The notes under the pieces are model-generated. The model worked only from the letters and a program-made list of their open reading frames with translations, made no database searches and was not told the origin of the DNA. Positions 48,257-62,760 of a DNA stretch of 64,000 bases are shown one piece after another. Both the position numbers and the translations under genes were made by a program. Origin of the DNA: a virus; the IMG/VR virus record IMGVR_UViG_3300031669_000002, positions 113,975 to 177,974 of that record. One strand, 5' to 3'. The first letter of the stretch is position 1; each line of letters starts with the position of its first letter.

Positions 48257-48767
48257 CATCCGGCCTGTCGCGCATAGGTAGTTAGACTATGTGAGGTAAG
48301 CTCGGGACTGCCGTGAGAAGCGTGTAGGAGATAAGTTATAACTAAGTTGGTACACCCGCTTTCTGAGATCGAGAGACCCTAACCGACGAGGAAAGATGGA
48401 TAAGCTGATCGTAGGGCTCAGTGATGCATCAATGCCAACTTAGTTATAACTTATCGTTAAACTACCGTGATAAAGGCAGCAAGCCAAACAGTTCGTGGGA
48501 ACTTCTCACTTGTACGGACGGGTTGGTGCATCGATGATCCAGATTGAAACCTGGGGAGAACAGTAATTATTTGATGGGGCATGGTGTAGGTCGGCTTCAA
48601 AGTTTACCAGAACGTTGTAAACAGCCAGCAGAGATTTATCATCAAGCTAGACTCGCAAGAGTGACAAACGGTGCCTGAAGACGGGTTCAACTCCCGAATG
48701 CTCCACCAAATAATTACTGTAGTCGAATGATAGGATTAGAACAGAATCCCGGCTATGAGATGTTAAA
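48252..48767 (+). ncRNA. rnpB: RNase P RNA (bacterial type-A-like catalytic domain) with a nested tRNA-like insert
   Basis: P1 TTTAACATC/GATGTTAAA; P2 CCTGTC/GATAGG; P3 GCATAG/CTATGT; CR-I GAGGTAAGCTCGGGA; P4 8 bp with bulged U pairing 48747-48754; P5 CTGCC/GGCAG; P6 GTGAGAAG/CTTCTCAC; CAGCAAGCCAAACAG; CR-V ACAGAATCCCGGCTA. Confidence 0.85.
48576..48708 (+). ncRNA. 133-nt tmRNA-like (alanyl TLD) RNA inside the RNase P RNA
   Basis: GGGGCAT/ATGCTCC-A-CCA with G3.U70, P2a CTTCA/TGAAG, 3' GACGGGTTCAACTCCCG as in ssrA 3' ends. Confidence 0.8.
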
Positions 48768-52006: not shown

Positions 52007-52564
52007 ATGCAAATACTTACACTTGATTCAGGCGGACTTCCACACCACTGGACAACCTGGGAAGACGCGATAACTCTGAAAGTTAAGGGTTGCATAGCCT
52101 GGGAGTATGGTCAGGAAGATGCAGAAACATTCCATGGAGGAACCTCTCGCGTATCAGGACTTCGCACAGTGGTTGACGTAGCACCAATCATCGCTGTTAA
52201 AGGAAAGTTCAAATACGATCGACGTACACCAGCATTAACCAACCAGAACTTATTTCGTCGAGACAAGATGACTTGTGCTTACTGCGGTCATGTTCATGCA
52301 GATAACAAGCTGAACCGTGATCACATACACCCAACATCCAAAGGTGGTCCAGATACTTGGATGAACGTTGTTACATCGTGTCTTAGGTGTAACTGGCTGA
52401 AGGCAGACAAGACATTAGAACAAGCAGGTATGGAATTGCTTTACGCTCCATACGTTCCATCGCACGAAGAAAAGTTGATTTTGCAGAATCGCAAGATTCT
52501 TACATGTCAGATGGACTTCTTAGTAGCGATGTTGCCAAAGCATAGTCGTGTATTAACATCTTAA
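52007..52564 (+). CDS. HNH endonuclease (McrA-like)
   Basis: LFRRDKMTCAYCG, NRDHIHPTSKGGPDTWMNVVTSCLRCN..K. Confidence 0.85.
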   Translation: MQILTLDSGGLPHHWTTWEDAITLKVKGCIAWEYGQEDAETFHGGTSRVSGLRTVVDVAPIIAVKGKFKYDRRTPALTNQNLFRRDKMTCAYCGHVHADNKLNRDHIHPTSKGGPDTWMNVVTSCLRCNWLKADKTLEQAGMELLYAPYVPSHEEKLILQNRKILTCQMDFLVAMLPKHSRVLTS

Positions 52565-55384: not shown

Positions 55385-55792
55385 ATGAAAAGAATAGTGG
55401 TTGATGTAGCAGGTCGAGAATCGTCGGAGATATTTGATGAACTGCGAAACCTCTTCAATGAGGAAGACTATACGGCAGCAACCACTAACTTTGATTCAAG
55501 CAACAAACCAAGATCAGTTGTTATTCTGACGCACAATGACGCAGTAGAAACATATTTAAACCTAAAGTATGTTGGCATTTCAGGCACAGAATTCTTGTCG
55601 TTAGTGACAGAAGAAGAAAAACTAAAACTTGCTTTTATTGCTGGATTTACAGCCGCCAGACAAATAGATAGAACTAAGTTCGACGAAGACCTAAAAACGA
55701 TGCTTGGCATCGATTTAGAAGCAGATATAATAAGTAAGAAGTTTGAGGAATTCAAAACTAACTTCCCTGACTTAAATATGCTGTATTTCTAA
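55385..55792 (+). CDS. Hypothetical protein
   Basis: 135-aa ORF. Confidence 0.7.
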   Translation: MKRIVVDVAGRESSEIFDELRNLFNEEDYTAATTNFDSSNKPRSVVILTHNDAVETYLNLKYVGISGTEFLSLVTEEEKLKLAFIAGFTAARQIDRTKFDEDLKTMLGIDLEADIISKKFEEFKTNFPDLNMLYF

Positions 55793-55835
55793 TATGGAAT
55801 AAATACATTATTAGCAGCTAAAAGAATTGTTGTAA

Positions 55836-56245
55836 GTGCGGGTATCAGACGCACAGGAGTTGAAAGTAAGGCATTTGAGACGGCGGTTCAATTCCGCCCT
55901 GCTCCACCAAAAACGCTCTAGCCCTCCAAAGTGCTAAGACGACGGAACGATAAGTGATAACTTAGAAAATCCGCTAGAGTGTTATTGATGGGGCAGACCA
56001 GGACTCGATCAAGTGAGATAGGATAGATGACAGCACGATAAGAAGAATCGTAAAAATCAAACAAAACAAATGCAAACGCAGATGTTAATACCGTTAAAGC
56101 AACAATGAGCAAAGGTTTCCGTTTCCGTTTCGGCGGTACTGTAGCTCGTGAAGCATTCGCAGCCTAAAAACTGCACGGCGTCGGAGCTATCCGATGTTAC
56201 CAAAATAGTAGGTTTCACAAACTGCACCTAAAGCAGTTTGTACTA
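55836..56245 (+). ncRNA. ssrA: Circularly permuted two-piece tmRNA
   Basis: Acceptor piece ends GGCGG-TTCAATT-CCGCC-CTGCTCC-A-CCA (55909) and precedes the coding piece starting GGGGCAG (55990). G3.U70, stem-closed intervening segment, tag ANADVNTVKATMSKGFRFRFGGTVAREAFAA at 56072-56167. Outer ends approximate. Confidence 0.9.
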
Positions 56246-56261
56246 ATTTTAGGATGTTAGT

Positions 56262-62085: not shown

Positions 62086-62760
62086 ATGAAACGTATTTTA
62101 GAAATTAGGGCCGCAGAAGGCGGAGAAGATTCCGCACTGTTTACGAAAGACCTATCAGCAGCATATCAAAAACTGTTCACCCGCCTGGGCTGAACTCACC
62201 GTCTAACTTCTTCAAGGTTAGGCGAAATCCTCATTGAAGTAACAGCAGAAGATTTATCCCAATTAGACAGAAACGAACCTGGTGGCCAAAGAACGCAGAG
62301 AATATCTCCAACTGAGAAACGCGGAAGAGTTCATTCTTCTACAGTTACAGTGGCCATCATTGATCCGGAAATAACAATCAATAACATTGATAAAATTGAT
62401 TTACGGATAGAGTGGTATAGCGGAACTGGTGCTGGTGGGCAGTTCCGCAATAAACATCAAAATAGTTGTAGAATAACGCATATCCCATCAGGGACGGTCG
62501 TTACATCACAAACTAGAAGTAGAAAAAATAGTTTAAAACTAGCAATGGATGAAATAACTATCCGGGTTAATCAAACTACAATAAACAAATCTTCGTCCGA
62601 AACTGCGGCTGTCAGAAAAGAACAAGTAGGATCAGGTATGCGTGGAGATAAAAAAAGAACAATACAATTCCAAAACAATAGAGTTACTGATCACGTAACT
62701 GGTAAAAAAATGTCGGCCGATAGGTATATGAAAGGATTTATTGACGATCTATGGAAATAA
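62086..62760 (+). CDS. Class-I peptide chain release factor homologue (RF1-like, lacks domain 1) with in-frame UGA at codon 36
   Basis: RBS AAGGAG. LEIRAAEGGEDS, then TGA 62191-62193, then in the same frame QRISPTEKRGRVHSSTVTVA and GTGAGGQ..NK...RITH. Confidence 0.85.

Follow-up and report, generated by a model that had tools for sequence, protein, structure and literature searches.

Few degradation signals have been studied as well as the tags encoded by transfer-messenger RNAs (tmRNAs), and these tags almost always have a length of about 10 residues. The gene described here encodes a tmRNA with a tag frame of 31 codons and lies in a stretch of 64,000 nucleotides (the window; positions 113,975 to 177,974 of the IMG/VR virus record IMGVR_UViG_3300031669_000002), whose numbering is used throughout. 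Its tmRNA is of the two-piece, circularly permuted kind. Such tmRNAs are found in Alphaproteobacteria, in a betaproteobacterial group and in some cyanobacteria, and RF04321 is the merged model for them (PMC11915505). The betaproteobacterial form is the "third lineage" of Sharkady and Williams (2004), as this work is relayed in PMC9004378 and PMC11915505. Lists of phage tmRNAs go back to those of the mycobacteriophages and phage G (PMC4131195), a tmRNA and sometimes SmpB have been reported in huge phages (PMC7162821), and Buchholz et al. (2022) counted 53 two-piece RNAs in a set of 133 distinct phage tmRNAs and considered the same roles as possible (PMC9004378). The novelty of a phage two-piece tmRNA, implied in an earlier note made from the letters of this DNA, was therefore overstated. 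The kind of gene is known and is detected by ARAGORN and Rfam; what seems new is a family with extended tags. Read from its sequence, the window's gene is probably a functional ssrA of a giant T4-like phage, two-piece and closest to the betaproteobacterial type, whose tag would combine an extension with a Clp-type C-terminus.

The tmRNAs of marine myophages (OM43 phage Melnitz, pelagimyophages, and some cyanophages) are similar to this gene in that they are complete permuted ssrA genes of lytic T4-like phages relying on host partners. However, those of Melnitz and the pelagimyophages are alpha-type, some with a glutamine riboswitch, whereas the window's family is beta-like (PMC9004378). This family belongs to giant phages distantly related to Atu_ph07 and PA5oct and has extended tags, which are not discussed in PMC9004378. 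In tag length the closest likeness is to the ssrA tags of Mycoplasma and Mesoplasma, of about 27 residues against the usual 10–14, in which the extra length carries protease-recognition information (PMC8403727, PMC10695633). The 27-residue Mycoplasma tag directs degradation by Lon (PMC8403727). Those are standard one-piece tmRNAs of bacteria without ClpXP, whereas the hosts of the window's phage presumably possess ClpXP, and the window's tag has a ClpX-like terminus and an unrelated extension sequence. A limited literature search retrieved no description of beta-like two-piece tmRNAs of giant phages or of two-part phage tags of 23–35 residues.

ARAGORN called a permuted tmRNA at 55817–56258 on the + strand, the sole permuted call in the window, with a 31-residue tag identical to the one predicted earlier. 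The RF04321 model (tmRNA_permuted) matched positions 55847–56167 over its full length (1–213) with 88.3 bits (E = 1.3e-15 for the whole window), above the gathering score of 47 bits and far above chance expectation. These two results bear out the prediction of a phage-encoded circularly permuted tmRNA with a 31-codon tag and place the RNA within RF04321. In the permuted order, the acceptor piece (55820–55909, delimited by sequence, RF04321 match, and family alignment) is upstream of the coding piece (55990–56251), as the same prediction held. The T arm GGCGG/TTCAATT/CCGCC (55882–55898), the acceptor 3′ strand CTGCTCC (55899–55905), and an encoded ACCA (55906–55909) come first, and the acceptor 5′ strand GGGGCAG (55990–55996) opens the coding piece. 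The resulting stem GGGGCAG/CTGCTCC has 7 bp with the alanine identity pair G3.U70, followed by the discriminator A and CCA. The alanine resume codon (AAAU-GCA, 56072) is located 82 nt from the 5′ end of the coding piece. The tag frame called by ARAGORN, ANADVNTVKATMSKGFRFRFGGTVAREAFAA, consists of 31 codons and TAA (56072–56167, with the stop at 56165–56167) and ends in …AFAA-TAA, so that the ClpXP-type FAA end noted before stands. All these features are on the + strand. The location given earlier (55836–56245) was correct, and its extent was not, since the outer P2 strand at 55828–55833 and the terminator-like hairpin at 56217–56241 belong to the gene.

A neighboring gene for a 357-residue protein led to two related phage contigs with permuted tmRNAs, and a DNA pattern taken from these two contigs matched more than 119 viral contigs; all family counts below refer to the matches listed. 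Among the viral contigs fetched, 68 tmRNAs have the conserved resume context. An alignment of 52 nonredundant family sequences showed covariation in every helix examined: four to six pair types occur at positions 4–6 of the acceptor stem, up to four per position in the T stem, and several compensatory pair types in P2a (7 bp) and in outer P2 (6 bp). The G3.U70 pair is invariant save in two of the 52 rows, both of which are alignment shifts. In the window, P2a is formed by CATTTGA (55872–55878) and TCAAGTG (56009–56015) and outer P2 by TGTTGT (55828–55833) and ACAGCA (56030–56035), all on the + strand. All four helices (acceptor stem, T stem, P2a, and outer P2) consist of standard pairs in the window, and three pairs of its P2a are double changes from the family consensus. 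The P2a helix proposed earlier is thus real, with compensatory changes in relatives. One further ARAGORN tmRNA* call, in L115, was rejected as false because it overlaps tRNA genes.

With every tag re-derived from the conserved resume codon, the tag lengths of the 68 tmRNAs are bimodal. Tags of 10–13 residues (37 cases) are host-like, of the form ANDxxxALAA, and tags of 23–35 residues (31 cases) are two to three times the usual length. The lineage is widespread, uncultured, and beta-like, with an extended tag in about half of its members. In both classes, 82–88 nt separate the 5′ end from the resume codon, and the extra codons must therefore lie inside the frame. Many long tags consist of an extension followed by a complete host-type tag, for instance ANADTFDFSAMSFTGNTVRGA-ANESRFALAA. 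ARAGORN picks an internal alanine codon in L123, L171, and L174, giving tags of 11–12 residues where the resume context gives 27, 25, and 35, respectively; automated annotation thus under-reports long tags in this family.

The long frames show several signs of translation. Every one of them ends in a canonical nonpolar terminus in phase with the canonical resume codon. When read in the +1 and +2 frames, 27 distinct long frames contain 54 and 60 stops. Differences between seven related pairs fall at codon positions 1, 2, and 3 in the numbers 23, 15, and 38 (chi-square p = 0.005). When the pair of the window and its relative L335 is added, 30 codon changes are synonymous and 39 nonsynonymous (p = 0.002 against 27% expected). 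In 13 representatives, the extensions contain 33 hydrophobic-x-hydrophobic triplets against 13.7 ± 3.2 in shuffled sequences, none of 2,000 shuffles reaching 33. Such an alternation is as expected of an amphipathic strand or hairpin. The long tag appears to be under selection as a peptide, and these data are supportive of this rather than conclusive.

A metagenome scan retrieved two closer copies of the window's gene, the nearly identical L334 with a tag of 29 residues (…SKGFRFGGTVAREAFAA) and L335 with one of 30 residues (ANTFVNGAVKATMSKGFRFGGAVAREALVA). The same subgroup includes L174, from a 318 kb phage genome that is 91% complete and has 65% portal identity, with the 35-residue tag ANKANTFGTVAVKVGKDFRFGGKVAANADSYELVA, and it also takes in tags with …EVTVSGKNVKFSAR…. 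Synonymous changes and indels that respect the frame leave the tag reading intact in L334, L335, and L174. The indels that distinguish the window, L334, and L335 are of 3 and 6 bases. One of them is a 6-base tandem duplication, TTCCGT twice (56117–56128, + strand), which turns FRF into FRFRF and is present as a single unit in L334. The motif FRFGG is read in L335 and L174. The FRFRF segment, formerly taken for an insert, is no designed module: it is a strain-level in-frame polymorphism of the conserved FRFGG motif, and the near-identical L334 does without the second unit. Neither FRFRF nor FRFGG recurs meaningfully in the proteins of the phage; FRFRF has a single further match, which is an unremarkable six-frame hit.

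The assignment to one of the two-piece lineages was examined with the alpha (RF01849), beta (RF01850), and cyano (RF01851) models suggested earlier for this purpose, whose gathering scores are 50, 84, and 70 bits. No model reached its gathering score, and the beta model was clearly the closest. RF01850 aligned over the full length with 55.7 bits, below its cut-off of 84, so that the window's tmRNA is beta-like and not a curated member of that family. The scores of RF01849 (21.1 bits, cut-off 50) and RF01851 (30.6 bits, cut-off 70) come from partial matches of the tRNA-like domain (TLD). The RF01850 score is lowered because of an extra hairpin in the acceptor piece, GTGCG/CGCAC (55836–55854, + strand), and because the terminal hairpin of the model is forced onto the long tag frame. 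This lineage-specific hairpin covaries in L335 (GAGTA/TACTC) and is missing from L174. The window's RNA shares with the RF01850 tmRNAs the permuted order, G3.U70, a segmented P2, a small hairpin before the A-rich run, the resume context AAAU-GCAAAC, a helix-closed intervening segment, and a terminal hairpin after the tag. It differs from them in its 31-codon tag, against about 10 codons in the bacterial members sampled, in the extra acceptor-piece hairpin, and in being encoded by a phage of 39% GC content that lacks SmpB.

The motif preceding the resume codon, AATCAANCAAA…AAAT-GCAAA, matches that of the two-piece tmRNAs of Alcaligenaceae and is shared exactly with Advenella and Pelistega. In a scan of one genome from each of 185,579 bacterial species, it was found inside a permuted tmRNA gene only in Alcaligenaceae and in a few unclassified or mis-binned contigs of metagenome-assembled genomes (MAGs); the remaining matches of the pattern carry no tmRNA call. 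The beta affinity rests on this common motif together with RF01850 being the best lineage model. Among the 23 bacterial hits in tmRNAs, 22 have the tag ANDESYALAA. The exception, L260, is a 7.6 kb contig binned as an uncultured Bifidobacterium MAG, with a family-type permuted tmRNA and an extended-looking tag (ARAGORN …VAVNDSKFALAA); it is probably of phage origin and was placed in the bacterial MAG by mis-binning. The bacterial comparison comprised these 22 hits and eight Burkholderiales tmRNAs (four permuted and four standard), and the tags were of about 10 residues, with only eight residues called by ARAGORN in one of the eight. One of these eight, L309, comes from G087, which is flagged as unpublished; the restriction of long tags to phages does not depend on it. 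Within the sampled sets, long tags are phage-specific.

The window is the final 64 kb of a 177,974-base virus record estimated by CheckV as about 51% complete. The record encodes a T4-type DNA polymerase, a portal, an SbcC-like nuclease, and a baseplate hub, and its portal is 49–51% identical to those of Agrobacterium phage Atu_ph07, Sinorhizobium phage Phosso, and Pseudomonas phage PA5oct. The GC content is 39% throughout, the tmRNA region included, and ARAGORN located 44 tRNA genes 4–20 kb upstream of the tmRNA. The tmRNA gene follows this tRNA island and lies 8 kb from the contig end among small phage-like genes, of which the adjoining ones include a hemerythrin-like and a NUDIX protein. 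The phage genes, the portal relatives, the uniform GC content, and the tRNA island show that the tmRNA gene belongs to the phage and not to host DNA at the edge of a prophage. Among the relatives are phage genomes of 318–383 kb, complete or nearly so, with portal identities of 57–65%.

The two pieces are separated by an intervening segment of 80 nt (55910–55989, + strand). In the predicted fold it is closed by an 11-bp helix, AACGCTCTAGC/GCTAGAGTGTT (55912–55922 and 55973–55983), which leaves a single-stranded leader of 6 nt, ATTGAT, between the helix and the coding piece. This helix, already pointed out in the earlier note, is confirmed by compensatory changes in relatives: in L335 and L174 the sequence differs and the complementarity is kept. 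A closing helix of at least 7 bp is present in 45 of 49 distinct intervening segments of the family (mean 10.4 bp against 5.9 in shuffled sequences), starting 0–2 nt after ACCA and ending 4–6 nt before the coding piece, although the helix sequences are unrelated among members. The segment is presumably removed during maturation. The helix looks like a leader–trailer helix stacked on the acceptor stem, which would present the precursor to RNase P and to 3′ trimming enzymes.

SmpB (PF01668) had no match in the record or in five large relatives, including ones that are 100%, 100%, and 91% complete, and the RNA must therefore use the SmpB, AlaRS, and EF-Tu of the host. Other phage tmRNAs are likewise assumed to depend on host SmpB. 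The gene would be expressed as a single transcript from just upstream of 55820 to a terminator near 56250. The closing helix of the intervening segment would stack on the acceptor stem, RNase P would cleave before G55990, the 3′ end would be trimmed to the encoded CCA at 55909, and the acceptor stem and the P2 helices would keep the two pieces together. Host AlaRS would charge the RNA through G3.U70 and A73, and host SmpB and EF-Tu would bring it to ribosomes that have stalled on broken mRNAs, of which a phage-infected cell has plenty. Resumption at GCA 56072 would then add the 31-residue tag. Its former part, of about 20 residues, would be a phage-specific extension with strand-like alternation of hydrophobic and polar residues, and its latter part a conventional nonpolar C-terminus, …AFAA, of the kind read by ClpXP. 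The favored reading gives the extension a possible role as a second recognition element that supplements a Clp-type degron and might be bound by an adaptor, a chaperone, or a protease such as Lon. In this way it could speed up or redirect the disposal of rescued chains, with amino acids and ribosomes being recycled for phage protein synthesis.

Proteolytic partners were searched for in the phages themselves. Lon_C is absent from 11 large records. A cellular-type ClpP, not to be confused with the ClpP-like head maturation protease, is encoded by three long-tag relatives (G055, G056, and G058). Matches to NF001368 of 292–307 bits were obtained in L337 (G056:89913-93452) and L338 (G055), and L339 (G058) was recognized by the Pfam CLP_protease match (219.7 bits). 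The recorded half of the window's phage contains no ClpP. The ClpP gene is preceded by an AAA ATPase gene in G056 and by an SPFH/Band 7 gene in G055. The AAA protein of G056 was rejected as ClpX-like, having neither a GYVG nor an IGF motif, and resembles ATPases of the clamp-loader or DnaA type.

Several other explanations of the gene were weighed against a functional two-piece ssrA. In one of them, a different protease or adaptor, such as Lon, would receive the tagged proteins in place of ClpXP, and the extension would change their fate without adding a second signal; its aromatic, strand-like segments resemble known Lon degrons, and Type II relatives have noncanonical ends (…LAV, …LVA). The Lon-directed 27-residue Mycoplasma tag also speaks for such a switch (PMC8403727). 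It is nevertheless unlikely, as the window's tag and most long tags retain …[LF]AA ends, and related phages with a cellular-type ClpP and no Lon point to continued Clp proteolysis. Less likely still is a role mainly as a decoy, in which the RNA would bind host SmpB, AlaRS, or EF-Tu and block or out-compete host trans-translation, and for which the tag would be irrelevant. Phages without SmpB must compete for that of the host, a TLD-only tmRNA exists in mycobacteriophage DS6A and a similar molecule inhibits tmRNA (PMC4131195, PMC11915505), and the window's phage also has a mini TLD RNA. A pure decoy would, however, have no need of a tag frame that is open in every family member, with a canonical terminus, an excess of synonymous changes, and in-frame indels only. 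The resume context, too, is strictly conserved.

It is very improbable that translation resumes at an internal alanine codon to give a tag of about 10 residues, the extension serving as an RNA spacer or structural insert. The last 10–12 residues of many long tags do look like a complete host tag (…A-ANESRFALAA), and ARAGORN chooses such a start in the three cases above. On the other hand, the upstream GCA is singled out in every member by the conserved motif and the 5′ distance. The extension invariably stays in frame without a stop, while stops abound in the other frames; changes at third positions are over-represented; and the C-terminal part of the window's tag, GGTVAREAFAA, has no internal AND-like start. 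Hardly credible is an origin in host DNA, either as a bacterial ssrA captured beside a prophage or mis-binned, or as a decaying passenger. Prophages commonly integrate at tmRNA genes, so that host ssrA enters virus catalogs at the ends of contigs, and a few of the loci fetched (L011 and L012, GC 0.59–0.64) do look like host ssrA. The window's gene, by contrast, is 8 kb inside its contig among phage-like small genes with a phage-like GC content, has relatives inside 318–383 kb phage genomes, keeps all its helices intact, and has a long tag of a kind absent from the sampled bacterial beta-type tmRNAs.

For a functional phage ssrA with an extended, Clp-type tag, some observations are unfavorable. 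The beta model stays under its cut-off, and the outer P2 and pseudoknot-1 regions depart from the consensus; a second stem of pseudoknot 1 was looked for and none was convincing, only the hairpin at 56036–56050 being evident. No full-length match to the tmRNA occurs among about 50,000 INPHARED phage records, cultured phages included. The codon statistics rest on few, short, and related sequences. Since the record is about 51% complete, this phage may encode SmpB in the missing half. The phages yielded no gene for Lon, for a ClpX-like unfoldase, or for a known adaptor. The tags of Type II relatives terminate in …LAV, …FAV, or …LVA, which are possibly weaker ClpX signals, and the role proposed for the extension is pure inference.

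The rerouting of rescued proteins to other proteases or adaptors is plausible, though on the doubtful side; in its favor, the extension is phage-only in the samples and conserved as a peptide, and a Lon-directed long tag has a precedent in Mycoplasma (PMC8403727). A broader and tentative proposal is that of a phage-evolved two-part tag, with a strand-forming module of about 15–25 residues before a host-type degron, which might be read by a factor other than SspB/ClpX (Lon, a chaperone, or an unrecognized phage protein). The mini tmRNA-like RNA, the RNase P RNA, the release-factor-like gene, and, in relatives, ClpP might then form one phage-run program of rescue and recycling. With the module read in this way, the phage would control the fate of every fragment rescued from stalled ribosomes during infection. 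Tags of 23–35 residues, against about 10 in the sampled bacteria, suggest that phages may rewrite the fate of rescued proteins beyond topping up rescue. They could help in studying how host proteolysis and the recycling of amino acids are managed by giant phages, and they could be a source of new, naturally tuned degrons. For annotation, it matters that ARAGORN misplaces the resume codon in some members and that RF01850 misses the family.

The remaining parts of the gene are as follows, all on the + strand. The acceptor piece begins with a conserved start, AAAAGAATTGTTGTAAG. The 5′ part of the coding piece (55990–56071; RF04321 match and family alignment) contains the hairpin CGAT/ATCG of the pseudoknot-1 region (56036–56050, 4–5 bp) and a conserved A-rich run, AATCAAACAAA…AAAT, directly before the resume codon. 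The 3′ trailer (56168–56251), delimited by folding and by alignment with relatives, includes the hairpin CGTCGGA/TCCGATG (56179–56196), the conserved element CCAAAATAG (56200–56208), and the terminator-like hairpin (56217–56241), followed by a T-rich run. The trailer and the terminator-like hairpin are kept in L334 and L335. In the P2 and pseudoknot regions, the minimum-free-energy fold of the precursor cannot be relied on; it was used for local hairpins only.

Upstream of the gene, AATAAATA (55798–55805, + strand) is a weak candidate for a phage late-type promoter box, and an alternative sigma-70-like site, TTGGCA-16-TATAAT, lies at 55704–55731. In many family members, the alignment places a TATAAT box 7–10 nt before the conserved ATTGTTGTAA. 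In six loci (L129, L130, L142, L164, L166, and L196), an element of the approximate form AAYATTCAGCCnGCnTAARG lies immediately before the conserved beginning of the acceptor piece. A degenerate version of it occurs at 55806–55824 of the window, and in other members its place is taken by a plain TATAAT box. This element may be a phage-specific promoter.

A second tmRNA-like RNA, of standard order, is located at 48576–48709 (+ strand) inside an RNase P-like RNA. It shows GGGGCAT…ATGCTCC-ACCA with G3.U70, a T arm, and the same TGAT-GGGGCA leader as the permuted tmRNA, and it matches RF00023 weakly (13.4 bits, G000:162550-162682). The earlier claim of two distinct tmRNA-like RNAs holds with this alanine-type RNA; its supposed nesting in the permuted tmRNA does not, the two being 7 kb apart. 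Similarly to the TLD-only tmRNA of DS6A (PMC4131195, PMC11915505), it has an alanine-type tRNA-like domain with little or no tag frame, and it differs from it in co-occurring with a full two-piece tmRNA and in lying within an RNase P-like RNA. In L014 (6139–6217, − strand) and L016 (2372–2450, + strand), RNAs of about 79 nt match RF00023 end to end (55.6 bits, model 1–374), and by their sequence they are taken to be TLD-only mini-tmRNAs of the DS6A kind.

Searches for relatives of the locus by other routes were less productive. Blastn of the locus and of the surrounding 20 kb against INPHARED gave no relative, and L191, a consensus-like family member, matches cultured phages there only over the T-arm/acceptor region. 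The downstream hemerythrin-like gene, used as a synteny anchor, had no relatives in viral contigs. The portal as anchor led to 80 related fragments; 50 of these were scanned and none had a permuted tmRNA, owing to their shortness and to the distance of about 105 kb between the gene and the portal.

A tree of the conserved RNA core does not cleanly separate long-tag from short-tag genes and permits no conclusion on a single or multiple origin. The same tag type occurs on different branches of this tree. In L126 and L170, the tmRNA adjoins genes that lie at 20–26 kb in the window's record, where the tmRNA itself is at 55.8 kb of the window. The differing gene neighborhoods and the scattered tag types together suggest that the tmRNA gene or its tag module moves by recombination. 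An HNH homing-endonuclease gene (52007–52564) is situated between the tRNA island and the tmRNA region. A release-factor-like protein is encoded at 62350–62760 of the window, and its 52%-identical homologue in L174 (10469–11023, − strand) is about 2 kb from the tmRNA of that genome; ribosome-rescue genes may travel together in this phage group.

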